Below are positions 19,966 through 62,738 of a stretch of 64,000 nt of DNA, one piece after another. Each line of letters opens with the position of its first letter. Positions within the stretch are counted from its first letter, which is position 1. The notes under the pieces were generated by a model. It did not search any database, was not told the DNA's origin, and was given only the letters and a program-made list of their open reading frames with translations. The DNA is from Pelomyxa schiedti (Eukaryota > Protista > Evosea): positions 329,673 through 393,672 of the forward strand of contig JAHLWZ010000004.1 of NCBI GenBank assembly GCA_020536535.1, given 5' to 3'. The position numbers were made by a program, and so were the translations under genes.

Positions 19966-21870
19966 TCAGTGCCATAAGGTTAAAACGACAAAAGTTGTGC
20001 AGCAAACACAAACACCCAGAGCAATGGGAATGATAATCCACAGTAGCAAATGGGGAAGAGTTGAACCCCTGGCAGCACTATGCACAAGAGGGTGATCAAT
20101 TTGTTGATGTTGTTGTGAGCCTGTTGTTGTGGATGGGTGTGTTGATAAGGACTCAAATTTGTCCTCTGTGAAAAAAGCCTTTTCCGCAAACATTTCCTCA
20201 AATTGGTGATGTGGTATTGCACACTTTCTGTGCCTCATTGATGAGTCCACATAACGGTGGGGGCTAGAAGAACCCCCTTGTTTTTCCTGCTGTTGTTGGT
20301 TGCTTGATTCTGTGTTTGTGTCGCTCAAGGGGCTTTGATTCTCACTATTTGTTGTTGATTCCTTTGTTGTGGATTTTGTGCTTTGTGTGGATGATGTAGT
20401 TGATGTGTGGATTCGTGAGTGGCAGCTGTTATGCTGTGATTCAGATGGAAGAACTTCTTTGTGGTCCTGACATAGCAGCACAGGCCTGGATTTGGGCTGG
20501 TACGCACATAAGGGAGTGGGTGAACTGCCGGTGGTTGAGGAGTAACTGCTGGATGATGTGTAGACTGTGGACTTGGGTGCTTTAGATTTTGCCTTTCTGC
20601 TTGTGCTGGTTGTTTTTTTGCTTGTTTGAGTCAGCTGGAAGATATTTGCCGGTAGCTCCACAACCCATTTTTCGCCTTGTTGCGGAATTGTAGGGGTTGT
20701 TGTGTGTGTGACACCAGTTTGGATGGTGGCAGAATTTGATGCATCGGCCGCACAGGGTGAGGGTTCAAAATTTGTGCAAGGCAACGACGATGGGAGTGGG
20801 TACGGTTGTGAGTGTGAGTGTGAATGCGGAGGTGAGGATGGAGAACAGACCTGGTACTCGGCCTCGTCAGAGAGAAGTTTTTCAGCTGCCTCCTCCAGTG
20901 GTGGTGTTTCCGTGATTGTCGGTGATATCTCGCCAGAATGTCCCGCAGACAAGGACGAGGACACGCGCTCATCTGCCGAAGAATCGGATTCCCCAGTGTG
21001 AGAACCCAGAGACTGTGACGAAGACGATGACGCCAAAGAGCCCTCGGAAGCCTCACTGTGCTCACCCGATTCCGCGCCATCCTCGCCATTCGGCTCACTG
21101 TCCCCAGACCCATAATTCTCCCTCCCTCCCTCCAGTTCCTCGCTGCCCTGGTCCTGGTGATGATCGTGGAAGGAGCTAGCACCCGGACGGTGACGCGATG
21201 GAGGAGAGGAAGAAGGCGAGGGAGAAGGAGAAGGCGCAGGGGAAGGGGCCGGGGCCGGGGCCGCGGCGCGGAGCCAGGCCTCCACGGCCCCCTCCACCTC
21301 CCCGCGCTCCCAGTCGCCAATCACGCCGTCCCGCACCCCCGCCCCGCACACCCACCTGGTCAGCATCCCCAGCTTCAGCCCGTACTCCCCCCCTCCCTCT
21401 CCCCCGCATTCTCCTTCCCCGTCTGCTTCTGCTTCCCACTCGCCCTCCCCCTCCCCTTCCCCTTCCCCTTGCACGCGTCGGTGCGGGGACAGCGCGGGGG
21501 AGTTCATGTGGGCGCTGACGAACTGGGCCAGGGTCCCGTGCACCAGCCACTGCTGGCACAGGGCCTGCCTCAGCTCCGCGGTGGTCCTGGGGCTGGGGTC
21601 AGTCCTGGCCCCCGTGCGCTCCCTGCCTGCACTCGTGCTTGCCGTGCGCATCCGCGTGGCCGACGCCGCTGTGGCACAATTATGGGTGCTGCTCATCCCT
21701 CTTGCCCTGCTGCTTGGTGTGTCCTTGGCGCCACGACGCGGGCCGTGGTCAGTCATGGTTCGTTTTCGTCGGTGTTGTTGTTCGCGCGAACGGGTACCAA
21801 AAAGAAGGTGAAATTCAGCAGTTTTGTTGATGTTCATGGAGTGGTGGGTGAATTGTTTGAGTGGGAACAA
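19966..21870 (-). CDS. Acidic Ser/Thr/Pro-rich mucin-like protein with C-terminal transmembrane anchor (low-complexity ORF; true start uncertain)
   Basis: A 634-aa uninterrupted ORF contains PAPAPSPAPSPSPSPSS and GEGEGEGE tracts and ends with the hydrophobic LLLWIIIPIALGVCVCCTTFVVLTLWH. The 20600-21800 region is GC-rich, and opposite-strand ORFs there are compositional artifacts. Confidence 0.4.
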   Translation of the reverse strand: MFPLKQFTHHSMNINKTAEFHLLFGTRSREQQHRRKRTMTDHGPRRGAKDTPSSRARGMSSTHNCATAASATRMRTASTSAGRERTGARTDPSPRTTAELRQALCQQWLVHGTLAQFVSAHMNSPALSPHRRVQGEGEGEGEGEWEAEADGEGECGGEGGGEYGLKLGMLTRWVCGAGVRDGVIGDWERGEVEGAVEAWLRAAAPAPAPSPAPSPSPSPSSSPPSRHRPGASSFHDHHQDQGSEELEGGRENYGSGDSEPNGEDGAESGEHSEASEGSLASSSSSQSLGSHTGESDSSADERVSSSLSAGHSGEISPTITETPPLEEAAEKLLSDEAEYQVCSPSSPPHSHSHSQPYPLPSSLPCTNFEPSPCAADASNSATIQTGVTHTTTPTIPQQGEKWVVELPANIFQLTQTSKKTTSTSRKAKSKAPKSTVYTSSSSYSSTTGSSPTPLCAYQPKSRPVLLCQDHKEVLPSESQHNSCHSRIHTSTTSSTQSTKSTTKESTTNSENQSPLSDTNTESSNQQQQEKQGGSSSPHRYVDSSMRHRKCAIPHHQFEEMFAEKAFFTEDKFESLSTHPSTTTGSQQHQQIDHPLVHSAARGSTLPHLLLWIIIPIALGVCVCCTTFVVLTLWH

Positions 21871-22077
21871 GATGCATTATGGACTATGTAGCATATTGGC
21901 TTGGTGGAGGTGCCTGATGCGGAGAACTCCCGGCTGTTGGACAAAGGGTTCTCCATCAACTTGGCAGGGAAGGGGCCCCTCCTTGATAAATGTTATCTTC
22001 AACTCACGGCCTTGCATGAGTTTGGGTGGTAGAATAATTCCAGCAGAGACTTGTCCCTGTTGGGAACGTTAGAGAAC

Positions 22078-32210: not shown

Positions 32211-34679
32211 TTGTGTGACATCCCAATGTCCCTTGTATATTATCCGGTGAGTCCGAAACAGTTAGAGATCCTCAGGATCGTCTCTATCTCACGAGTCCTG
32301 TGGCAGCACGTCATCCCCCGCGCCCTCGCGCCCCCTCCCATAATCAGCAAAACTCCCCCACGGCTGCTCGTCCCCACCCTGATCTACCCCGCGATCGCGG
32401 ATGCGGCCTCCCCCAGCGCCGCCGCCGCGCAAGTTGCCGCCGCCGCAAACAACACCGAGTGCGGGTGCGTGTCCCCGCACGCCGGAGATTGCCAGCCGTC
32501 GACATGCGACCCAAGCCCCGCGCTGGACGCGTACCACCGCGTCCTCGTGTGCGCCGGCGAGGCCCTGTTCCCGCTGCGAACCGTGTGCCTCCGCGCGCTA
32601 TTGGACGTCCTGTCTCGCGAGAACTTCTTCCCGCACGAGCAGGCGTTGATGTCTTTCGCGAGGAACGGGGCGCTGGCGATGGCCAAGGCGCTGATGGCGG
32701 AGTGGTACAGGTTGGCCCCCCCGCCTTCGCTTGCTCCTTCTTCGGTGAGAGTGTGCTCCGCCGCGGCTGCTGCTAGTGCTTGCGGCGATGCTAACGCCGA
32801 CACTATTGTGCTTATGCCGGCGCCGCCGCCGTGGTGCTATTCCTTTGGTGTCACGCCGTCGGTTGCAAAGGCTTTCGTTGTTAACTTGCTTGCGGCAAGT
32901 TGCCAAGCTGGGAGCGTTCCGTTTTCTGAATGGGTCATGTCCCTTCATGCAGATATGATTCCTCGCGCTGACCTTGTACAAATATTTAAGACTGCTGTTG
33001 CCTACCCAGAAATTTTGGATCTGTTGTGGGAGGAATTTTCCCCCTCATTGACATTGAAAGAAACTTTTGGAAACGCTGGGGCAGCAGGCACAGTTCTTCT
33101 GCAAAATATTGCAATCACACGAATTAATACTGTAAAATGGCTGTTATCTCATTTTGACATACCACTGCTCGAGATCCGCAAAGATCCTTCTTTCTCTTCG
33201 TATTTCACTCAATGTGCCCCTAGGCCGGATAGTGCCGCGTCCCTGCATTGGCTGATTGCCACATTCTGCACTAACCGCGATGTCGATGAATCAAACCTTC
33301 TGTCAGAAGCTTTGAAATGCGCTTGTCGTGGTGGAAATGTAACTTCTACAGAGATTATTATGTCTTTTCTATCAGCTGAAGCTGTACGTAAACTACCAAA
33401 ACACGACTGGGATGCAAAGTGCATTATCTGGGTATGTGAAAAAATCGGAGAGCCACTCCCCAGATCCGTTTTTGAGAAAAGCTGCTTGTTGGATAATGTT
33501 CCACTTGTTCAATCACTAGCAGTGATGCTGGCTATAACACCGCTGGAAGTAAGAGCAGAGAGACATCGGTTACTTATGTTAGTCCTTGGTTCAAAGAAAT
33601 TCCAGGTAGCTCAGTGGCTGCTTGATTACTATGGTATCATGAGAGGACAAGCGCCCTACGTACTGCGCCTAGTCTGCGGGGCGGGGAACGTCGATTTTGC
33701 ACAGTGGGTGACTACAAGGTTTAACTTCTCACGACGCGTGGTGCAGAACAACAAAAACCGTATCCTGCGGGCGTGTTGCCGTGACGGCCTTGCACCTATG
33801 GTTAAGTGGCTCGTTGTTCAATTTGCACTTACCATTCAAGATGCCCGAAGCTGTGACAATGGAGCCTTCAGGGCATGCATCGAAAGTGGACAGCTTCCTT
33901 TAGTGCAATGGTTAACAGACCACTTTAACCTAACGCCTGATGACGCGAGGAGCCGAAATAACTATGCCCTCTGGGTGGCCTCCTGGTGGAACCGCCTTGA
34001 TATTGTCAAGTGGCTTGTGGAGCGCTTCAATCTCACGGCAGAGGATGTCACTCAGTGCAAGAGTGGGCGTTCTGCTTTGTACAGTGTCCCGATTGATACC
34101 TGGCTGCAAGAAAAACTCAACATGGCTTCGGGCGCGCAAGTAGCAGCCGACTATTCCTTAGCTTTTCCAACTGCCGTTCAAGTGGCTGGGGCCCAATGGG
34201 CCGAAATCAGCAACTCGCTACTGACGAACTCCGGCAAGATGGGAGACGCCCAGCTGAGCGCGCTCCTAAACGGAGGTTACCGCCCATCAGTCGTCAAGTG
34301 GCTGATTCAAAGGACCGGCCTTGTAGAGCGATTCGCCGCCGCTACCGGCGAATTCCAGCCCGTTACGCAGCTAATACTCACTTCGTGGCACCCAAGCCTC
34401 GACCAACCGCGCTGGCTTGTTCTGCGGCTAGGAATTCAGCCCGGAGACCCGCGGATACCCGTTCCGACGTTACTCCGCGGCGCGGTTGGCAACAACAACT
34501 GGGGCGCTATGAAGTGGCTATGCGAGTGGTTCACTGTCCCTGTGGAGCAGGTGCAGGCTGCCATTGACCAGCACGCGAGGCAGTTCGGGTCCTGGAATTC
34601 CAAGGAACGCCAGGAGTTCCAACAATGGTACTACCAGAAAATGGGCGTCTCTCCACCCTCAAAGTGTTGTTTGCAATAG
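32211..34679 (+). CDS. Intronless 822-aa protein made of divergent ankyrin-like ~33-35-aa repeats
   Basis: A single uninterrupted ORF. The recurring unit is A.R.AC..G.L..V.WL...F.LT..D.RS.NN.A, for example NNYALWVASWWNRLDIVKWLVERFNLTAEDV, ACIESGQLPLVQWLTDHFNLTPDDARS, APMVKWLVVQFALTIQDARS and VAQWLLDYYGI. This aligns to the ankyrin consensus (x-L-x-x-A-x-x-G-x-L-x-V-V-x-x-L-L). The 5' 600 nt are GC-rich with Ala/Pro runs. Confidence 0.6.
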   Translation: MCDIPMSLVYYPVSPKQLEILRIVSISRVLWQHVIPRALAPPPIISKTPPRLLVPTLIYPAIADAASPSAAAAQVAAAANNTECGCVSPHAGDCQPSTCDPSPALDAYHRVLVCAGEALFPLRTVCLRALLDVLSRENFFPHEQALMSFARNGALAMAKALMAEWYRLAPPPSLAPSSVRVCSAAAAASACGDANADTIVLMPAPPPWCYSFGVTPSVAKAFVVNLLAASCQAGSVPFSEWVMSLHADMIPRADLVQIFKTAVAYPEILDLLWEEFSPSLTLKETFGNAGAAGTVLLQNIAITRINTVKWLLSHFDIPLLEIRKDPSFSSYFTQCAPRPDSAASLHWLIATFCTNRDVDESNLLSEALKCACRGGNVTSTEIIMSFLSAEAVRKLPKHDWDAKCIIWVCEKIGEPLPRSVFEKSCLLDNVPLVQSLAVMLAITPLEVRAERHRLLMLVLGSKKFQVAQWLLDYYGIMRGQAPYVLRLVCGAGNVDFAQWVTTRFNFSRRVVQNNKNRILRACCRDGLAPMVKWLVVQFALTIQDARSCDNGAFRACIESGQLPLVQWLTDHFNLTPDDARSRNNYALWVASWWNRLDIVKWLVERFNLTAEDVTQCKSGRSALYSVPIDTWLQEKLNMASGAQVAADYSLAFPTAVQVAGAQWAEISNSLLTNSGKMGDAQLSALLNGGYRPSVVKWLIQRTGLVERFAAATGEFQPVTQLILTSWHPSLDQPRWLVLRLGIQPGDPRIPVPTLLRGAVGNNNWGAMKWLCEWFTVPVEQVQAAIDQHARQFGSWNSKERQEFQQWYYQKMGVSPPSKCCLQ

Positions 34680-49077: not shown

Positions 49078-50196
49078 ATGCATGAGCAAATATCTAAACA
49101 AAAATCCCTTGGATTTGGTGTCCCACCTGCAGTTCAAATCGTCGATCGGCTCATAGCAACAAAATATGGCCCTGATTTTCGACCTCCACCAAAAGATACA
49201 AATGAAGAGGAGGAGAGTTGCTTTGAGGAAGTCGAGGATGATGAGGATGATGAAGAGGAAGAAGAAGACGATGATGACGAGGCTGCAGAAGAGGCAACTA
49301 CCAAGAATGGTACAAGTGACAATGAGGTGTCAAGTTCCCCAAAACCCAAAGACCCCCCTTCTAAGAGAGCAAGAACAGTTGTAATTGAGAGCAACTCTGG
49401 CAGTATTGAGAGTCACAACGGTATATCTGAACTGCTTGTACTCAACCTCACCAATTTTAGATGCACAACTTCACGTACCCCTTGAAGGAATAATGAAACT
49501 ACCTCCAAATTTTGTGGTGCAGGTCTTTTCCTACTTGAGCCCAAAGGACCTATGCTCTTCGAGTTCGGTTTGTCACTATTGGCATCAGCTGTGCTCCGCT
49601 GATATCATATGGAACCAGTGTTACCTCAGAACCTGGCCTGATGCAGATCCCACAAGAATTAAAAAGGTACCGTGACATCAACTTTGTGGGGGAGGTGTAA
49701 CGGGCTACAGATTTGGAAATTTTTCGCCAAGGGTAAAACTACCTGGAAAAGAGCCGTACTTGCACAGTACAACTGGGATTTATATTCTTCCTATTGTTCC
49801 TATTGTAACTTTGATGTTGCCGGTGCTGCAGCCGAGTACATTGTTGCCAGAGCCAACAGGAAACACAAAGGCTGTGATTCTGACAGCCCTCTGGATCACC
49901 TATTGCATAGCAAATCCTATGGTGAAGAAGTATTCTATGGTCCGGTGTACATGTACAACTCCAGTGCAGTTGCACACCTTAATGAGCTGCTTGGGGCAAT
50001 ATCCAATTTCACCAGTGCAGAAGAATTCTGGACACCTGAGGAAAAAGGCTGGCCCAGAACACTTGGGGGAATCTGCCCCTCCTGTGATACTCAGTCAGAG
50101 GATGCCCTTCTTGTTGCCCACCACGTTACCAGTTTAAAGATGATTGCGCAAGCAGCAGGGACCCGCCACTGTGCCCTCCTGAAGTACCTGGACTGA
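49078..50196 (+). CDS. F-box protein with acidic N-terminal region, at least 3 exons
   Basis: An acidic exon (..EEVEDDEDDEEEEEDDDDEAAEE..) comes first. After a 23-nt-class short intron, the F-box reads LPPNFVVQVFSYLSPKDLCSSSSVCHYWHQLCSADIIWNQ (compare LP.E.L..IF.YL...DL...S.VCK.W..L..D..LW). A Cys-rich C-terminal exon runs 49672..50196. Confidence 0.5.
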
Positions 50197-50968
50197 ATGG
50201 GTACCGTTTCTTTCAACAATGTAAGGAATAGGAACAAGAAAGCAATTTTGGTTGCAGATGAAGAGTTTCAACTACGAATATATTCGAAGCTATCCCAACA
50301 GTAAGATAAAGGATCAGCCCACTTGGTCGTGGGCCAGTGCTCCCTCGGTTAACCGTACCAAGTTAAAACCCAGTTAACAGTTAACCAGGAACCCAGTTAA
50401 GCAAACCCTTAACAAAAATTTTCTGAGAAATATCAATCACTTCGGTGTTTGTGTTAGTAGTACTGGTAGCATGTCAAAACGAGGACCTGCTGCAACGTCT
50501 CAAGTCAAGCAATAAAAATAGTTACCACTTGGAAAGAGCACATAAATTTGTCAAAAAGTCCCAACAACCAACACCAACAGCAACCAACACCAACAGCAAC
50601 AAACAATCGACAAGTATGTCCAAGCAGTTCTTGCTGACAGGATACCCGGACTTAGCAAAAATCAACTTGTTTTCCCTTTTCCCACCAACATCCTTATTCA
50701 GCACAGGTAGCTTTAGCATTTGCCATGCCTGGACTTCCCTTTTCCATGCTCTCTTCCCCTTATTTCCGTCGTATCCTGAGCCCTGAGAAGATTTATGGGG
50801 CATCACCTGAAAAGGTTAGTAAATACTAATATCATGTATGGAGGATGTTAAAATCGAAAAGATTCATGCTTGGATTAATCTACTGTATTAATGGCTTCGG
50901 AAAGGCCTCACTGAGTTTGTGGCAGCTCATGAAGCTGTGGATTAGTTGCAGAGAAGTACCCCCAATGG

Positions 50969-51503
50969 ATGAAGCGTGGTCTGCTACCAGTATCTAGCAA
51001 GGTACCTCGTGCTGAACTTACATCTCAGCTATTGGCACAGCTATCCAAACATGTGTCCAAGACTGATCCAATACAACTTGGGTGTGCAAAGACTTGTCTC
51101 ACTTGCTCAAACTACTGGCTGGCATCTTTGGCTATTTCTCCACTTGTTGACAAAGATATCCGCACCCGCTTCAACAGAGACCTCACGGGCGACCTGAGGG
51201 CCCTCGCTTTGCTCCGCAGGGCCTGCGACAAGACCTAAGTCAATGTTGAAGGGTTGTTCGATGGCATCCACAACATCCGCTGTAACTCGCTCAACTTTTG
51301 AAGAGCTCACCAAGGAACTCTTCAGAAGAGCCTTGGAACCAATAGGCAAAGTACTAGAAGACCCCAAGCTGAAGAAGAAGAGAAATGCAAGTGAAGAGCC
51401 TGTGAAAAAACGTACAAGGAAGTCCAGGAAGCAACCCAACCTGGCAGGTGGTCCTCATTGGAGCTCACCAAGGAACTCTTCAGAAGAGCCTTGGAACCAA
51501 TAG
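50969..51503 (+). pseudogene. Hsp70 fragment (nucleotide-binding-domain subdomain IIB/IIA region only), frameshifted and followed by unrelated sequence
   Basis: Frame A gives ..VDKDIRTRFNRDLTGDLRALALLRRACDKT (compare Hsp70 KKDI..NKRALRRLRTACERAKRTL). Frame B gives VNVEGLFDGIHNI (compare IEIDSLFEGIDFY). Frame C gives TRSTFEELTKELFRRALEPIGKVLEDPKL (compare TRARFEELNADLFR..L.PV.K.L.D.KL). The frame shifts by +1 within about 10 nt. There are no upstream or downstream Hsp70 exons. Confidence 0.5.
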
Positions 51504-51561
51504 GCAAAGTACTAGAAGACCCCAAGCTGAAGAAGAAGAGAAATGCAAGTGAAGAGCCTGT
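51305..51561 (+). repeat. 101-bp direct duplication (copies 51305..51405 and 51461..51561, about 55-bp spacer) within the Hsp70 fragment
   Basis: The identical string gagctcaccaaggaactcttcagaagagccttggaaccaataggcaaagtactagaagaccccaagctgaagaagaagagaaatgcaagtgaagagcctgt occurs twice. Confidence 0.85.
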
Positions 51562-51848
51562 ATTGTACCCCTTTATTTTGTTTTTCTTTTGTGGGAATTG
51601 GTGGGTATCGTGAGGGTATGTTGCTTCAATTTCTGTATTGTAGTCTTCTTTTGCGTGCGTACGGAAAAGAGGACAATGAGAGTGGAACAGTTGCGATTTG
51701 ATATCAATTAACTTCTTTATAAATCTTCGGCCGGAAGTTTTGGCAAAACGAAAAAAGTACCGCAAGTACGAAGCCAACAACGATCGGTATAGCAAACCCG
51801 AACCCCCCCTTTTTTCCGTTTCCCGTGCACTGAGCCACTTCACAACAA

Positions 51849-53623
51849 AGATGGATAAGTCACACAAGTCACTTCCACATGATGTGCTCTGGCGCTGCAT
51901 GCTGACTGGAAGGGGTGCTGGGAGAACACACCCGCGTGCCTTTGAGTGCCACTTCCGTGTTGGTCAGCGGGAACCAAGGGGAATTTCTCTCTTCCAGTCG
52001 ATGGCCGAGGACCAGCACGATCCCAAAATGCTCTGGATGCTTGGGGAGTTCTACCTGCGGGGGCAGGGAACAGACCCTGACCCAATCAAGGGCCTGCAGT
52101 ACTTATACAAGGCCGCGGATGCCGGCAGTGTTCCTGCATTATGGGCCATATCCCAGTGCTACTTCACCGGCATGTACGGAATCGAGAAAGATTACGCCAA
52201 ATCTGTTCCTTTTCTCCAGCGCGGAGCTGATGCCGGAGATCCGGATGCGCTGTATATTCTTGGAAACTGCTTCTTGGGCGGAATGGGAGTGGCTGAAGAT
52301 CATAGCAAAGCGGCTGCTTTATTTCAGAAAGCTGCCGATCTTGGACTTCCTGAGGCATGCGTGGATCTTGGAAAACTTTACCTTCAGGGTAAAGGCGTTC
52401 CGGTTGATGAGAGAAAGGCCTTTCCTCTTTTGCAGAGGGTTGTAAATGATCCCAAGGTTGGATGGGAGGCTCAGCTCAATCTCTGTGACTTCTACTTGTA
52501 TGGTATGGAAGGAGTGCAACGGGACGTGCAGAAAGGTCTGTTGTATTTGCAGAAAGCTGTTCAGAAAGGCGATCCAGAAGGTTTATTTCGCCTGGGCCAA
52601 TGTTACAACGTTGGAGTTGGAGTCGAGAGAGATATCAAAAAGGCAGTAGAGCTTTTTCAGCGGTCTGTGGAAGGTGGTTGTGCTACCGCAATGTACAGCC
52701 TCAGCGAGCACTACCTGAAGGGTGATTGCGTTCCACGTGACCCAGTAAAAGCTATTTCACTTCTGCAGAATTCTGTTGAGATGAACGATCGACAAGGATT
52801 ATGGCGCCTCGGCAGATGTTATGACACTGGAGAAGGAGTCACGAAAGATGTAAGAAAGGCAGTTGAACTTTACCAGAGGTCTGTGGGACGTGGTTGCGTA
52901 TTAGCAATGTACAACCTCAGCAAGCACTACATGAGCGGCGAAGGCGTTACATTTGACCCTGAACAAGCAGTCTCGCTTCTAGAGAGAGCTTCAGAACATG
53001 GATACACTCCGGCAATGTGTAAACTTGCTCACTATTACAAGGAGGGAAAGGGAGTTGATGTGGATATTGGGAGGGCAATTTCGCTCTTGAATAAGGCCGC
53101 TGACGCCGGATATATTAAAGCAATGAACGAACTCAGTGTCAATTACAGCTTGGGACAAGGTATTCCCATTGACATGAATCGCGCCGCTTCGCTGATTCAA
53201 AGAGCATACGATATGGGGAGCAATGAGGCCGCAATCGCACTTGGATGGGGTCTGTTGATGGGTGCTTACGACATGACACGCAACGTCCAAAGAGCCATTC
53301 CAATCCTGAAGAAAGCATCTGAAGAGTCATCTGATGCCAAAACCATGTTGGCAATGTGCTATGAATGTGGCGTGGGCGTGGCCAAAGACATGAACATGGC
53401 CAACTCCCTCTTCCAACAAGTCATTGACAAGGGCTACACAGAGGCTATCTTCAAGGTTGGTGCATACTTAGAATCCGGTGCCTTGCATGGGCCAAAAGAC
53501 ATCGCCAGAGCGTTTCAACTTTACAGAAGGGCTGCTTGTGCTGGAGACCAAAGGGCACAGGCCAGGTTTTCTTCACTCTTGAGCTTGTGCTTGAACGTGT
53601 TTGAGGAGCTTTCGAGTACGTAG
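51849..53623 (+). CDS. Intronless Sel1-like repeat (SLR/TPR-like) protein with about 15 repeats
   Basis: An uninterrupted ORF runs from MDKSHKSLPHDVLW.. to a stop at 53623. Repeated ~36-aa units have the Sel1 signature, for example LGEFYLRGQGTDPDPIKGLQYLYKAADAG, LGNCFLGGMGVAEDHSKAAALFQKAADLG, LGKLYLQGKGVPVDERKAFPLLQRV, LGQCYNVGVGVERDIKKAVELFQRSVEGG and LGRCYDTGEGVTKDVRKAVELYQRS. No signal peptide or TM segment is present. Confidence 0.7.
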
Positions 53624-54084: not shown

Positions 54085-55532
54085 TCATTGACGGTCTGCC
54101 ATGACAATCTGTGTTGGCAAACGTAGCATCCCACGCCGGCCTGGGCATGTGATTAAAATAAATGAATAAATTAATCCTAACAACACCCAAATGACGAGAG
54201 ATATACACATAGAGAAACAAACATACTCTTCCTTGAACCAGTCATTTATGAGGGCATCAAATTCGTCCACAGTGGCACAACCTTCGAGGAGGTTCCCAGA
54301 TTCAGGGTAGCATACCGGTTCCGAAGGGCAGTCACAGACCCAATCGTTCTGATTTGTGCAGTACTTGGCTAATACCTCGAGGGCATCCCCAGTGCATGTG
54401 TTGTCAACAAACTCCGCGGTGTAGTACACGAGGGTAAAGTCGCAGTCGCCGCCATCATATCCACAATCCTCATTGTTGCACCGATCGTCGCAGTGATTAT
54501 TACCAATCATATCCTCGTTACACCACCAAATATCGCGATCAGTGTAACCATCCATCTGGCCGCAATAGCCATCTAAGTTGTGTGTTAGGCTCGTAAACTT
54601 GATTACGACACAGTTACAACACAGGTAACACAGAACCAGAATCACACACAGTCAAGAGGGGGAGAGAGATATTTTCTCAATCTATAAGGGACAAACAAGC
54701 GTCGCAGTCGCCGCCGTCCCGATCGCAGTAATCGTTGTAGCACTCTCTGTCACAATTCCCGTCACCAACCTGGCTCCTTAGGCAATAGGGGTAATCGCAG
54801 TAGTCCCCGATGACGTTGTCACACTCATCGCCGTCCCAGTTGCAGTCCTCCGTGTAGCAATCCATGTCCCCTCGTCGTTCGGAATGTAGCACGAGGGAGA
54901 GCACAAGCCCTCACAGTCAGTGAATCCGTCGCAGAAGCATTCCTCGGTCCAGCAATCTATGTCGCATTGTTCGTTGCCAATCAGCCAGGGATAGCAGTTA
55001 GGAGCACAACTGATGAGCACTGGGACATAGGAAGTGAGGGAGTTAGAGAAACAGCAAAACCAAAGGTTGTAAAAACAAAAAAAGAAGCTGCTACTACTAC
55101 AACTACACACTGCAGTCTCCGCCGTCCCACGCACAGTCGACGTTGGCACACTCCCAATTACACACGCCATCTCCCCAGTCCTCAGCCGCGCAGTTCCAGT
55201 CGCCGCACGACTCCTCCGTCACAGCAGTCTCCGCCGTCGCAGTTGCATTCCTCTGTCATGCATCGCGGGTCACATCCGCAGTCACCGATTGGATTCTGGA
55301 AGATCCGGGGTTGCAGATGTCTGTTTGTTATTGTAAATGAGGCAATAAAGCAGCTTTAGGCGAAAAGGAGCGGGAGGGCACCTCTGCAGTGGCCCTTGTC
55401 GGAGGAGTTTTCTGTGCTGAAGCACTCTATGTCGCATTTGCCATCACCGATTCGACCATGACAACTGTCTCCCCATCCTTTGGAAGCAAAGGCGACTGCG
55501 GACAGGGCAAACAAAGCAAGGATGCACCTCAT
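54085..55532 (-). CDS. Secreted cysteine-rich protein composed of multiple Lin-12/Notch (LNR) repeats, multi-exon
   Basis: An N-terminal signal peptide MRCILALFALSAVAFA is followed by at least five LNR-type modules: GDGKCDIECFSTENSSDKGHC, QCDIDCWTEECFCDGFTDCEG, GDGNCDRECYNDYCDRDGGDCDAC, NNHCDDRCNNEDCGYDGGDCDF and one more at about 55100-55260. They fit the consensus C...C.....G.C...C....C..DGGDC. The C-terminal Cys-rich region (..CTGDALEVLAKYCTNQNDWVCDCPSEPVCYPESG..) has unknown affiliation. Confidence 0.6.
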
Positions 55533-55643
55533 GTTGTTTGGGTGCGTGTCTTTTCGGTGTTTGTTCTCTGAGACGAGAGCCTTGGTTTCTTTGTTTTTCT
55601 TCACTGTTTTAGCAATGACGTAAAATGAAACTGTTGGCGGTGT

Positions 55644-57479: not shown

Positions 57480-60400
57480 GTGTGAGCTTTCAGACGTTCA
57501 GAGAAAACACCAAGATAGTGGGAAAATATTGAATTTGGCCGGTTATGTGGCATCTGTGATAGTTTCACAGATGTTACAGTGCGCACATACCTAGTGGATG
57601 TAAGGTTAATTTATTTGGCACACCTAAGGAACTTGGTAGCAAGATCAACCAAGCCCAAATCCGCGAGCCATTGCGCATATATAAATTTAAATACCTTTCA
57701 CATTTTTAAAAAATCAATTAAGTCTTTGTGAGGCACACATGTAAAGAGGGAAGATTGAACTGGGGATTGCCTAGCAGCTTGGAGTACTCATAAACCTCTG
57801 TAGCTTGAATAGCTTGAGGAGTAATCCACTGAGATTTGCGCTTGTGATCGGCACCTTCGAGGAGGTAAGTAAGAAAAGTGGTGTGTTATGTACCAAGAAG
57901 CACAAGGCGGGTATTGGGATTGTCACAAAAACCGAAAGCATAATCTGCAATACAGTAGCTAATTTATTTAAATTTAGGTGACACACTATGCAATAAAGAT
58001 ACCAAAAGTGTGCAGACACCACATTGCCTCGTACAGTCCACAACCGGTCTCCCAGTTCTCCAATCACTCCCCTGTCTGTGTTCATCTTATTGTTTGCTAA
58101 AACAACCGCTAAGTTTTCTCGCCAGCGGTCCAACAGGGGGATAGGGGATGTGTCATAACCGTTTGGAACAGCACTGAAGATCTCTGGGACAAATGCTGAG
58201 GGAAAAAAATCCAGAAAAAATAGAAAATATACCAGTAGGTAGAGCAGCTAATAATAAATAGAGGGTGCGTATGGGATCACCAGGGGGAAGAGCTCTCTGG
58301 GCATACTGCTTTATGGCTTCCATCTGCATATTTGCTGGAAATTGATGACTTAATATAAGTGCATGTTCCCAGAGTTGCTCATTGATGGCATATTTGTAGG
58401 CCTACTCTGTATTAGCATTTACTTGGCGGAAAAAAGGGGGTGAAAAAAAATTTGTAGCACACCTCTGTTTTTTTGCCTTCAAGCAGTAGACTTTGGAAAT
58501 GGGCAAATGCAGAAGGATCTATATTAGGCCGAACAGAAACGGGTTTCTACAGATAGTCAACAAAAAACTTCATTAAGTTTTCCGCACGGGTGTTGTTATA
58601 TGCTTGGACAACGAGGATAAAAGAAGTTGTTGTATTTCTTGTGTGCAAGTTGGTCCTTTATTGTTTGTCTCATAAGCAATATTCCCTACAGAGAGTTATC
58701 GATTTCTCGCGCTATCAACAAGAAACCGTAGTGGCGAATGAGTATCTGCAGCAAACTCCAGAGAATGTCAACTCTATCTTGGGGTTGTGTCTCAAATTCG
58801 CATATTGGTGTTGCTTCTTGATGCTTCAAGGCTAAGAATTTTAATACAACGTCCTATGCTGCAGTTAAACTAAACTTGAGGAGAAATTAGCTAAAACCTG
58901 AGATATACTGCGATTCAGAGGACCAGGGAAGTCAGTGAATTCTCTCGTCTCTGAGGTGAGAGCTGTTTTCAAATTTACAACATGAACAGAATATGGAGGC
59001 TCCTAGAGAAGAAATCAGTTGTAACTTAACTTTCACACTACATTTTGTGGATGGGAGTAAGCTGTTGCAAGAAGGCCACCAAATCCGAATCGTGCTACAC
59101 ACTTTCGGGAATGCATGTACTGAATTGGGTCAAAGGTTTTCCTTTTTTTCGTTACCCCAGGCTGCACACCAGTCTCTGCAATGAGATTACTTGTTCCTGG
59201 GATCGGTAATGGATTAGGCAGTTGATTTATTTGGGGTGGGTTGACAGGGACTGATGTGACAGGACAGAGTTTGAGTGGTGCACTTGTCACAGAGATTCCA
59301 GGAAGGGCAACAGGCGGCATTGGAATTGCTTGTATCTCGGTATCAGGTTTAGAAACTTGGTGAACTTCCAAGTTTCTTGTTTCTGAAGATGTCTCGTGGG
59401 AACGGGTATTTGGCTTGAGAGTGGTAATAGGTGATAAAACTAGTACATCAGACGCGGGTGTAGGCTTGCTGTTAGATAGTACACATTGGTCAGTGGTGGA
59501 TGGGACAGGAATAAATGTGGGTGCTACGGGTACGACATCTGCCTGTGTGTTATCGTTGGTGGAGATCTCAGGATTATTGGTATTGATAGGGAGAATATTA
59601 TGCAATGAGGCAGGGTCTGCACTATAGGTAAATGAGGGAGTTAGATTCGTAGGATTGGTTAAGGGGTGTGGAAGAAGGGATGCTTTGGGAAGTGGCACTA
59701 TGTTTCCTTTTGGAAGTGGGACTGGTGTTGTGGTTGGCAATTGCACCCTTGTAGGTTGCAGACTAAGTACTTTTGCAGCTGGAATTACTGTGGGTAATGG
59801 GAGAGTAGGAAGTGGGGTAGTGGTAGTGGGAAGAGGGACGACTGGAAGTTGGACAGCGGGAAGTGTAGCACCGGGTGAAACTAATGTGGGCAAAGAGGTA
59901 GACGGAAGGGGTACCGTTGGAAGAGGGGCAGTGGGAAGAGGCGTGGCGGGAAGGACTGCTGATGTCTGTGATGCAGCCGAAACCTGCAGGATAGGCACTG
60001 GGGAAGATTTTACCAGAAAGGTTGACTTTGGTGTTGAAACTGTTGGTAGAACAGCGGGAAGTATAGGAATGTTAATTGGACGGGGTCTTGGGGCAATTTC
60101 AGAAGTTGTATTTTGGTTGATGGGTGATAGTGTCGTTGGCAGAACAGGTAAGCCTGTTGGAGTTGAACTTGGTATTGGTAAAGTACTGACTACCACAGAT
60201 TGTGAAGCAGGGAGTAGACTTGGTTGCTGTGCGGTAGAAGGAGTAGGAGATGGAACAAGTACCTTCATTGTTTGTGTGGAATTTGGTTTTGGTTGCACTA
60301 TACTCTGGTTACTGTTATCCCCCAGATTTTTAAGTGGGGGGGATGGAATTAATGTCGCTACTCGGTTGGCAGAAGTAGGTGGTGGGACCAGCACTTTTGG

Positions 60401-62738
60401 AGTGGTGGACGGCACAGAAGAAATGGAAGAGCCAGATAAAAGTTGTGGTGACTGAAAAGTAGACGAGGGAATTGGAAGATTTACTGGTTTTTGTATGTTG
60501 GACCCTTGAGTTGCTGATGGTAACTGTAGGGAAAGTAAAGGTTGCGGGGGAGCTGTCAACAACTGTGGTTTCACAGGGACAGCTGTGGGAAGTGGAGTTG
60601 GTTTTGGTACAAGTAGTTGGCCAGATTGTGAAGAGGTGGTAAGAGGCAGTAGTTGAGTATTTGTTGTCCTTTGTGATGAAGCGGGTGCTTGGTTAGGCAC
60701 CTGTGGTTGTGTGACTACAGGGGAAAGAATTTTTGGAGGCAGTACTGTTTGTGGAAGTGGTTTGGTGGTGATAGGGCTGAATGGGTCACTGGGGAAAACT
60801 GGGGAATTTCGCGGAGCCGAGGTTGGATTGGTTTGTGCTACAGGGACAGTGCTTTGGTGAGTTGACAGAGCATCAAAAAAATTGTCCTTCTCCTCACCAA
60901 ACGGTATGGATTGCTCCTGAATTGCTGAAAAGGGGTCAGGAACCTTGTCTTTAGCTGGGATTGCTCTTGTTCCCACTGTTTGCTTGTTCCCCGTTGATGT
61001 TTGTGTTTGTGTTTGCGTTGGTGTTGGTGTTGGTGTTGGTGTTAGTACAGACATGGCCGGGCTGTTCCCATAATTCCCAAACGGGTCATCACCCCCCAGA
61101 CCTGAAGAGGAAGGTTCTCCAAAAAACGGTATGCTCCCTCCTTCTTCAGCCCCCTCCTCGCCCTCGCCTTCCCCGTCGCCGTCGTCCTGGTCATCCCTGC
61201 CGGGTCCTCCCCATAATGACGGCGGCGGTGCGGCTGCAAACGAGAATGGTTTCGCAGGCGACGTAACTTGGGAGGGTGATGCCGGCGGTTTTGTGTTTCT
61301 CGCACTCGCACTCGCACTCGCGCTCATGCCTGAATTTGTTATCGCAGGTGAGAAAACAGAGCTCCCCGACGTTGATGTCGACGTGGGCGCGAGTGTCGAG
61401 ACTGGCTTGGGCTGCTGCTGCTGTTGGTGCTTGGGGGTTAGTATCGACGCCGTGGGCTGTGGTTTTGCCCACAGTGACTCGTTGTGTTGCACGACCAACG
61501 GCGGTTGTTGTTGCTGTTGTTTGTGCTGCTGCAGCACTTGGATGGTGCTGCTGGTAGTAGCTGTCGTCGTGCCTACTGCCTTTGTGGTGTTGGTGGCGAC
61601 TGCGGTCGATGGCCTTGCTGCTGCTGGTGCCGGCGCCGCGGGTGGCGCCGAGAGGAACGGCAAGGGGCCATCATCCTCGGCCTCGCCGTCGTCCGCATCC
61701 CCGCTCCCGAGTGAGCTGAAGAAGTCCTCGCCGTCGGCGCCGCTGCCAAAGGGTATGTTGTTCATCATCAATTCCGATGAGAGGGGAAAGAAATCAGAAA
61801 ATTTTTTTTTTGTTCTGGTGCTTGTGAGGTGAATCATTCTGCGTTCTGGTCTTGTCTTGAACTTTGTTTTATTTTTTTTTACATGCGGCTGGAATGAATT
61901 CGGAGGAATCGGTGTGGTCACATTACTCACTATCGCTGCTGTTTTTGTGGCTCCTGCCACTTCTGTTGGACGAGGTTTCCGATACCGAGGCTTGCTCTGA
62001 GGCTTGGGAAGTGTGCTCATCGGCTATGTCCTTGAGTCCCACGTTGGCGGATGAGTGCCGTTTCTTTGTGTGTAGTAGGTGTTTGCTGTGGTGGTGGTTT
62101 CCGCTGTTGTGATGATGGTGCTCACCCTTGCCGTTGCTGCCCCTATCCTCATCTTTGTCGGATGAGGACTCGAGCGTTTTCCGGGTCTCCCCGTTGCTGG
62201 TATCATCTGGTGAATTGCTTGCTGGAGTGTCCCCTTCTTCCAAGTTTCTGACGGGCCGAATTGTGTCGGGGCGGCAGTTCTTCTTGGAAGGCAGGCGACC
62301 TAAGCAAGAGAGGTCCTTATGTTGAGGCGCAGGCTTAACCGGCTCTGCTTCCACATTGGCCTTGGGTTCAACCAGTGGTTCTACAAGGGGTTCGGCAAGA
62401 GGGAGCTGGAACTCGGGAGTGCGTGGGGCTTCAGGCGAAGGCACAACTTGAGGAGTGCTGCTTTGGGGTGTGCAACTTTGAGGGGTGCCATCTGGTTGTG
62501 TTGACACGGTAGAGATGGGAACTGCGAGAGGCAAGTCTTGGTTAGGTTGAGGTGGAAATGCGCCATTTACCGGGAACATTTGTTGGGGTGGAGGCCTCAT
62601 TGGTTGATTTTGGGGAGGTGGCGACCCATACCCCATGTGCATTGTGGCATATGGGGGATACTGCGGAATTGGTTGCCCTGGTGCCATAGGCATTCCTGAC
62701 CCCGGGGGGTACGCAAAAGAGTCCCTGGGTTGAGGCAT
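57480..62738 (-). CDS. Sec16 homolog (COPII ER-exit-site scaffold): giant disordered Pro/Ser/Thr/Gln-rich N-terminal region plus central conserved domain, multi-exon
   Basis: The central conserved domain exons (about 57771..58400) encode ..IAINEQLWEHALILSHQFPANMQMEAIKQYAQRALPPGDPIRTLYLLLAA.. (compare human SEC16A ..[44 protein letters not shown]..), then ..PIPLLDRWRENLAVVLANN... The upstream 995-aa and 271-aa ORFs (59033..62020 and 61923..62738) are Pro/Thr/Ser/Gln-rich with (TP)n and (SA)n tracts, typical of the Sec16 N-terminus. The 5' and 3' limits are approximate. Confidence 0.55.

Follow-up and report, generated by a model that had tools for sequence, protein, structure and literature searches.

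The Sel1-like-repeat (SLR) solenoids of solved structure that best match the protein discussed here are bacterial, namely those of Oxalobacter formigenes (6ok3), E. coli (EsiB/c5321, 4bwr), Legionella (LpnE, 6deh, and LceB, 8sxq) and Helicobacter (HcpC, 1ouv), which are pure Sel1-repeat alpha-solenoids without a catalytic domain. Bacterial SLR proteins such as Hcp, LpnE, EnhC and EsiB are secreted, periplasmic or effector proteins equipped with export signals. In eukaryotes, a long Sel1 array of similar length is found in SEL1L/Hrd3, the adaptor of the HRD1 ubiquitin ligase in endoplasmic-reticulum-associated degradation, which is lumenal and has a signal peptide, a C-terminal membrane anchor and, in the case of SEL1L, an FN2 domain. 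Eukaryotic Sel1-repeat proteins without a membrane anchor exist as well, including LRP2BP, COA7 (SELRC1) and DELE1, which operate in the axoneme, in the mitochondrial intermembrane space and between mitochondria and cytosol, respectively, and whose arrays are much shorter (~5-8 repeats). The protein in question is encoded by a Sel1 gene of the anaerobic archamoeba Pelomyxa schiedti, situated within a 466,869-bp contig of which a 64,000-nt stretch (hereafter the window) was analysed. The reading that we favour, and consider likely, is that this is a native, intact nuclear gene for a stand-alone Sel1 solenoid, adjoined by an unrelated dead fragment of an Hsp70 gene.

The gene corresponds to the longest stop-to-stop open reading frame (ORF) across the locus (51698-53623, + strand). 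Its first ATG falls at 51851 and its stop codon at 53621-53623, which leaves in place the end (53623) proposed in a first-pass annotation of the window but moves the start from 51849 and gives a product of 590 aa rather than 591 (there are 591 codons with the stop). Pfam recognises Sel1 repeats (PF08238) in this ORF with an E-value of 1.2e-98 (320 bits against a cut-off of 30.7, 11 significant stretches), besides which it yields just weak, overlapping matches of the TPR clan. No kinase, caspase, TIR, FN2 or further domain was detected by Pfam, and the kinase profiles PF00069 and PF07714 are absent at E <=0.01 from the whole 641-aa stop-to-stop ORF. An AlphaFold2 model, built from the alignment of the four paralogues presented below, has a mean predicted local distance difference test (pLDDT) score of 84.5 and contains 30 predicted helices, which pair into 15 helix-turn-helix units and are followed by a cap helix, while the N-terminal residues are predicted to be disordered (pLDDT <50). 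The earlier description of the ORF as ~15 Sel1-like repeats and nothing else is thus borne out by Pfam and by the modelled helix pairs. So is the claim that there is neither signal peptide nor transmembrane segment, since no hydrophobic stretch was seen by hydropathy, the measure used here rather than SignalP or TMHMM: Kyte-Doolittle values averaged over 19 residues peak at 0.85, and the N-terminus is hydrophilic. As modelled, the Sel1 protein is a soluble 15-repeat alpha-solenoid and not a kinase.

How does this protein compare with the known systems? The top Foldseek matches of the model are all SLR solenoids (6ok3, EsiB 4bwr, SEL1L, LceB, LpnE, Hrd3 and HcpC). The bacterial structures match by sequence with E-values of 3e-50 to 1e-24 and by Foldseek with E-values of 2e-23 to 9e-11, at 24-29% identity, but the window protein has more repeats (15), carries no export signal and is encoded on a eukaryotic scaffold. 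SEL1L/Hrd3 is matched with a sequence E-value of ~2e-33 and a Foldseek E-value of ~2e-18, whereas identity is 16-24%, the global fit is poor (TM 0.27-0.32) and the window protein has none of the signal peptide, lumenal location, membrane anchor and FN2 domain seen there. LRP2BP, COA7 and DELE1 are significant matches in the PDB that are distantly similar to the window protein. By analogy with the bacterial SLR solenoids, it probably acts as a protein-binding scaffold.

The evidence that carries the favoured reading comes from the P. schiedti genome itself. A 677-aa P. schiedti protein deposited at NCBI (P0001) contains the Sel1 protein, with 100% identity, as its C-terminal 590 residues. The Sel1 protein also has three full-length paralogues (P0002, P0003 and P0004), each on other P. 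schiedti contigs, which are 62-68% identical to it and match it in one register along the whole array, nearly without indels. The four proteins share their size class (582-657 aa), the order of their 15 repeats, degenerate C-terminal repeats (GWGLLMGA, MLAxCYE) and the cap helix, and P0003 alone is described with a long basic C-terminal tail. A family-specific profile of the C-terminal 155 residues, aimed at orthologues in other amoebae, added a fifth copy that is fragmentary (Pelo_18966, P0121) and retrieved nothing convincing outside Pelomyxa. The Sel1 gene is therefore one of four full-length paralogues that, with one fragment, make up a subfamily specific to the species or lineage, and this subfamily itself falls inside a larger expansion of Sel1-like-repeat proteins in the P. 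schiedti genome (at least 12 distinct Sel1 proteins are encoded). More distant members of this expansion include KAH3723025, KAH3764441, KAH3743327 and KAH3762868.

Within the array, a two-repeat unit has been duplicated in tandem, with the two copies (A and B) now 73% identical in nucleotides and 56% in amino acids. Across the paralogues, A-A identities (65-69%) and B-B identities (64-76%) exceed A-B identities (50-58%), i.e. the units cluster by position, which implies that the internal duplication is older than the split of the paralogues and that each repeat position is individually conserved. This per-position conservation points to position-specific binding surfaces, as far as sequences can tell, and not to a generic array.

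The paralogues differ mainly at their N-terminus. The window copy and P0003 retain an N-terminal segment of 19-23 residues, with the common motif FxVGxxEPRGxSLF, both of which are missing from the P0002 and P0004 models. In the window, the segment is HPRAFECHFRVGQREPRGISLFQ (51926-51994, residues ~26-48), which in P0002 and P0004 may have been mis-called as an intron or may be truly deleted. A small intron at the 5' end of the window ORF (GT...polypyrimidine-CAG, ~51935-51996) was considered and rejected, because the segment is conserved in P0003 and its excision shifts the frame.

In the favoured reading, the product would be a soluble and presumably cytosolic alpha-solenoid behind a short disordered N-terminus, which, like SLR proteins generally, would most likely serve as a non-enzymatic scaffold or adaptor that binds partners in its superhelical groove. 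Among the arrays most similar outside the subfamily, several are linked to kinases, i.e. the P. schiedti kinase-Sel1 fusion P0085 (41% identity to the window protein over 259 residues), P0008 from the chytrid Nowakowskiella and P0172, a metagenomic protein labelled 'TPR repeat protein/serine/threonine protein kinase'. These have a protein-kinase domain (PF00069/PF07714) and more consensus-like repeats, whereas the window protein has no kinase domain. Since other P. schiedti Sel1 arrays are fused to kinases, a role as stand-alone adaptor in kinase or similar signalling is plausible and, by analogy, a reasonable suggestion.

Sequence searches well beyond P. schiedti define how the similarity to bacterial proteins should be read. 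An exhaustive HMMER scan of 1.84 billion protein cluster representatives returned 162,814 matches at E <=1e-3. Among the matches listed, a single full-length stretch was seen for the Pelomyxa cluster only (66% identity), while the other 149 consist of 2-31 stretches each at 28-45% identity. These are mostly long proteins, so that the score tracks array length. The six non-subfamily proteins of highest identity among the matches listed (40-45%) comprise four P. schiedti Sel1 proteins and two without a name. In the first search, the top non-Pelomyxa matches lie on densely packed, bacterial-looking contigs; the best bacterial-type match aligns in at least four registers (39, 38, 33 and 33% identity). 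No single-register similarity to bacterial SLR proteins was thus seen, and several registers at 33-39% identity mean that the bacterial-type similarity is one of repeat consensus and not of orthology. One of the top non-Pelomyxa Sel1 matches, P0007 (890 aa; locus L002, 8001-10673), belongs to a dense same-strand block with an AAA ATPase and a radical-SAM protein, which adjoins relaxase and NikA-like genes and apparently lies on a conjugative element in a metagenome.

DNA scans of viral, prokaryotic and metagenomic collections, in which the single protein and the paralogue alignment served as queries and each prokaryotic species was represented by one genome, are in line with the protein searches. 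The subfamily motifs (WRLGRCYD, GWGLLMGA, VNDP[KR][VI]GW and others) had no relative in IMG/VR, in 185,579 prokaryotic species genomes or in JGI (Joint Genome Institute) metagenomes, and IMG/VR scans with the protein and with the alignment confirmed no giant-virus relative, by a method that detects just relatives sharing motifs of 7-8 residues. The nearest relatives therefore are the same-genome paralogues, and neither bacterial or viral proteins nor, as had been envisaged as the alternative outcome, vertically inherited orthologues from other protists were found as best matches. The two papers on Pelomyxa genomes mention neither Sel1 nor a transfer of such genes, and the paper on the Acanthamoeba genome does not mention Sel1 either.

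The sequence around the gene gives a similar picture. The GC content at third codon positions is 0.51 in the Sel1 ORF, within the range of neighbouring window ORFs (0.36-0.68). Flanking direct or inverted repeats of at least 20 nt, terminal inverted repeats, long terminal repeats and target-site duplications were not found around the gene, nor was a poly(A) tract past its stop or a transposase- or reverse-transcriptase-like ORF near it. The spacer ORFs upstream have no Pfam match besides Hsp70, the interval at 50.2-53.7 kb has no further copy in the window, which has no second Sel1 gene either, and no Rfam families or tRNAs were detected. Together, native composition, eukaryotic neighbours and the lack of mobile hallmarks make contamination or a recent mobile insertion very unlikely.

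The 1.65-kb spacer upstream of the Sel1 gene has been rearranged at small scale. Some 450 bp 5' of the ORF lies the Hsp70 relic, in which an unedited 37-residue frame (51270-51380) is matched by the Pfam HSP70 profile (PF00012) with an E-value of 5e-5 at profile positions 289-325, and by tblastn with human HSPA8 at 47% identity over 36 aa. When one stop and one frameshift are bridged by eye, the stitched reading matches residues ~244-351 of the nucleotide-binding domain of HSPA6/HSPA1A/HSPA8 with an E-value of 4e-12. The lesions are an in-frame TAA (51236-51238), a frameshift at ~51280 and a 10-residue deletion, and there is no intact Hsp70 frame that would span nucleotide-binding and substrate-binding domains, which marks the relic as a pseudogene fragment. 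Elsewhere in the window, tblastn found no other credible Hsp70 piece. The stretch GVQRLVSLAQTTG (~51080-51120), taken by eye for a GIFEVKSTAGDTHLGG motif, was dropped since neither HMMER nor tblastn picked it up, and a 'VVLIG' at 51443-51457 could possibly be akin to IVLVGG, although it lies 13 residues too far downstream.

As the best 60 structure matches of the stitched reading are all eukaryotic cytosolic Hsp70s, the relic looks native too. Its parent was sought with the stitched 80-aa peptide, for which three candidates shared any 5-residue word and none scored, so that no annotated gene can have given rise to it recently, and it appears, from its sequence, to be old or very diverged. The P. 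schiedti genome has 14 Hsp70 genes, ten of them cytosolic (PMC8887013), and a dead Hsp70 fragment is unremarkable against this background. The fragment would derive from one of these many cytosolic genes and would subsequently have undergone a partial tandem duplication with a period of 158 bp, the 101-bp copies of which are 100% identical, with identity extending on neither side. Either this duplication arose very recently, or it was produced artificially by multiple-displacement amplification (MDA) of single cells. The first-pass annotation had thus rightly noticed a frameshifted Hsp70 remnant with a 101-bp direct duplication beside the gene, as Pfam, the stitched reading and the identical copies confirm. 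It had proposed local rearrangement or insertion of foreign or mobile DNA, and the former holds at small scale, as seen in the Hsp70 scrap and its duplication, whereas the latter runs counter to the native paralogues, the composition and the lack of transposable-element traits.

The deposited gene model is more elaborate than the one above. When mapped on the window, P0001 has three extra exons upstream of a fourth (51851-53623), separated by GTA..AG introns that measure 92, 173 and 64 nt, so that the claim that the gene is intronless holds for its repeat-coding body, which is one ORF colinear end to end with the paralogues, and not for the model in the database. The upstream exons add 87 aa that are read from the Hsp70 relic, including both 101-bp copies, and from the spacer.

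Several points weigh against a simple native gene starting at 51851. An intron-free exon of 1.77 kb is atypical for a genome whose genes average 7.43 introns each (PMC8887013). The three 5' introns resemble the genuine introns of neighbouring genes in their GTA..AG borders, and transcript evidence (PASA/EVM) was used to refine the published gene set, so that the upstream exons may be genuine, if only as a 5' untranslated region (UTR). Transcription of the gene and its start codon are both predicted. Finally, no orthologue was found outside P. schiedti, and descent from other Archamoebae is thus not demonstrated.

The alternative that best survives, although unlikely, follows from these points and holds that the four-exon model is correct, i.e. 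that this is a real chimeric gene in which the Hsp70 fragment has been exonised as a lysine-rich N-terminus of 87 residues or as a spliced 5' UTR. Apart from the splice-site resemblance and the transcript evidence, the introns are of plausible size and the frame is open from an ATG at 51261 through the splices. However, predictors pick splice sites so as to keep the frame open, which deprives an open frame of value as evidence, and the 19-residue repeat in the extension is there only since both 101-bp copies are used. The extension is found in none of the three paralogues, two of which begin (MEQADYKSLP, MDRLDKSLP) at the residue equivalent to ATG 51851, and the last intron of the model ends at the base just before this conserved ATG. 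Translation would therefore start at 51851 as judged from these alignments, and the 87-aa extension was probably introduced by gene prediction, or belongs at most to a spliced 5' UTR.

The names of these proteins deserve the same caution. P0002, P0003 and P0004 are called 'calmodulin-dependent protein kinase', 'serine/threonine protein kinase' and 'sel1 repeat family protein', and kinase names of the first two kinds are given to P0001, P0002 and P0003 despite the lack of a detectable kinase domain. With no kinase domain found by Pfam, the deposited kinase names are unsupported and were probably inherited from kinase-Sel1 fusion proteins. Both the 677-aa fusion model and the name 'calmodulin-dependent protein kinase' of P0001 are most likely annotation artefacts.

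The missing introns invite a second alternative, which we consider doubtful in the extreme, that the founder was a retrogene, i.e. a copy that arose by reverse transcription of a spliced Sel1 mRNA and hence had no introns, with the Hsp70 scrap as a processed pseudogene that was co-inserted by template switching or came to lie next to it. The Sel1 body and the Hsp70 fragment are both devoid of introns in an intron-rich genome, and the fragment stems, in isolation, from the interior of a highly expressed gene, as processed pseudogenes frequently do. Nonetheless, the poly(A) tract, target-site duplication and reverse transcriptase or long interspersed nuclear element remnant that retroposition might have left are all lacking, and the Hsp70 piece is situated 5' of the Sel1 ORF and has decayed far more, with no known protein qualifying as its close parent, which suggests that the two differ in age.

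It is equally doubtful that the gene or the ancestor of its subfamily is foreign, having been acquired by lateral transfer from a bacterium (prey or endosymbiont) or a giant virus, before being ameliorated and duplicated. Such an origin would account for the bare solenoid and the missing introns, the best PDB matches are bacterial SLR proteins, and the best-scoring named or contextualised matches after Pelomyxa lie on bacterial-looking dense contigs, one with a relaxase. Repeat proteins erase phylogenetic signal, so that an ancient transfer leaves little trace. Pelomyxa is also known to harbour bacterial endosymbionts (PMC10579272). On the other hand, match scores follow array length and several registers align at like identity, as expected of a repeat consensus, while the closest non-subfamily proteins by identity are mostly P. 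schiedti Sel1 proteins (among the matches listed). The subfamily motifs are absent from the Sel1 contexts of prokaryotes, IMG/VR and JGI metagenomes, the C-terminal profile retrieves nothing convincing beyond Pelomyxa, and composition, flanks and the lack of mobile-element hallmarks argue in the same direction. With four paralogues at ~35% divergence, a recent transfer is effectively excluded, and the data do not support inserted foreign or mobile DNA, be it of bacterial or of giant-virus type. The premise that bare SLR solenoids are characteristic of bacteria and viruses was too broad in any case, considering the soluble eukaryotic LRP2BP, COA7 and DELE1 and the Sel1 proteins of P. schiedti itself.

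A composite of the above, in which the subfamily stems from an ancient bacterial (possibly symbiont) gene that was domesticated, adapted in composition and duplicated, and in which the window copy recruited the Hsp70 fragment as 5' exons, is very unlikely, although ancient transfer or retroposition of the founder could explain the 1.77-kb intron-free body. Least probable by our estimate is that contamination, or a chimera of MDA, which is known to produce chimeric junctions, and de Bruijn assembly, accounts for the interval or, failing that, for the 101-bp duplication. It is true that single cells were amplified with GenomiPhi and assembled with SPAdes --sc to obtain the genome, and that the duplication is 100% identical within a heavily decayed pseudogene. 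However, the gene lies deep in a 467-kb scaffold between eukaryotic genes, has a native composition and has paralogues on other scaffolds, which leaves this explanation applicable to the duplication only. Even there, the largest k-mer (121) used for the assembly of seven pooled cells and Nanopore reads exceeds 101 bp, so that both junctions had to be read through.

If the Sel1 gene is native, as we favour, its protein is an already deposited but misnamed, lineage-restricted addition to a well-known kind of protein, and the locus is of little importance beyond annotation housekeeping. In that respect, public records call the window protein and one paralogue kinases, and the deposited model probably fuses a fragment of an Hsp70 pseudogene to the Sel1 ORF. 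The more general lesson is that, for a repeat protein that is bare and intron-free, having bacterial proteins as best outside matches is in itself no evidence of gene transfer. Long consensus-like repeat arrays score highly in any register, and the decisive comparison is single-register colinearity, which here leads only to same-genome paralogues. Of possible interest for amoeba signalling or symbiont handling is the sizeable and unstudied Sel1 expansion of P. schiedti, part of which is kinase-fused. The features of the locus are collected in Table 1.

Table 1. Features of the Sel1 locus of P. schiedti and of its immediate neighbours, in window coordinates
Feature	Position	Strand	Basis or remark
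F-box protein gene, upstream neighbour, short GTA..AG introns	49385..50196	+	Pfam F-box-like, E 1.3e-14
Short cluster of CCAGTTAAC-like units	50348..50410	.	~150 bp 3' of F-box stop
Decayed cytosolic-type Hsp70 fragment, ~230 bp, ~ residues 244-337 of the nucleotide-binding domain	51155..51383	+	Pfam, tblastn, stitched reading
Three extra exons of deposited model	51261-51411, 51504-51564, 51738-51786	+	Spliced mapping of P0001
101-bp direct repeat, copy 1, inside Hsp70 relic	51303..51403	+	
101-bp direct repeat, copy 2	51461..51561	+	57-bp spacer, period 158 bp
SLR coding sequence, single uninterrupted exon	51851..53623	+	ORF; Pfam Sel1; 100% identical to C-terminal 590 aa of P0001
Predicted disordered hydrophilic N-terminus, residues 1-43, without signal peptide	51851..51979	+	pLDDT; hydropathy
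Predicted alpha-solenoid of 15 helix-turn-helix Sel1-like repeats, residues 43-563	51977..53539	+	AlphaFold2; Foldseek
Two-repeat unit with old tandem duplication inside the array, 2 x 216 nt (2 x 72 aa)	52548..52979	+	
Predicted C-terminal capping helix, residues 567-589	53549..53617	+	AlphaFold2; kept in paralogues
Multi-exon Notch/LNR-repeat gene, convergent downstream neighbour	54085..55604	-	Pfam LNR, E 2.6e-5; Cys-rich units

As for the neighbourhood, the F-box gene upstream (here taken as 49078-50196, + strand) has an acidic Asp/Glu tract at 49200-49300 and two readable introns of ~50-55 nt, which start with GTAT/GTAC, end with TAG/CAG and provide a local reference for splice signals. 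The cluster of short repeats downstream of it, which had been pointed out before, is real and local, with three of the 13 GTTAAC sites of the window falling within 38 bp (50348-50385) and variants (GTTAAA, GTTAAG, CTTAAC) extending to ~50410. The motif is not enriched across the window as a whole, and the cluster is not repeated elsewhere in it above chance. Just downstream, in the spacer between the F-box and Sel1 genes, lies a CCAACA / 16-nt microsatellite (50561-50605). On the other side of the Sel1 gene, five diverged direct repeats of 41-43 nt mark the Cys-rich units of the LNR gene, and an LNR-repeat protein is mildly unusual in an archamoeba.

Several long ORFs lie elsewhere in the window. 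An uninterrupted ankyrin-repeat ORF of 822 codons (2.4 kb; 32211-34679, + strand) shows that the Sel1 gene is not alone in this intron-rich genome in having a long coding stretch free of introns. Another, of 995 codons (59033-62020, - strand), has an extremely high content of Pro, Thr, Ser and Gln, with DPF and IPFG-like motifs towards its N-terminus and no Pfam match, and overlaps a very strong GC skew of the + strand (+0.40 to +0.45). A low-complexity ORF of 634 codons (19966-21870, - strand), with Ser/Thr/Pro and Gly/Glu tracts and a hydrophobic C-terminus, lies where long ORFs overlap on both strands, in the most GC-rich kilobase of the window (21001-22000, GC 0.636), similar GC-rich islands being found at 7-8 kb, 11-12 kb, 32-35 kb and 61-63 kb.

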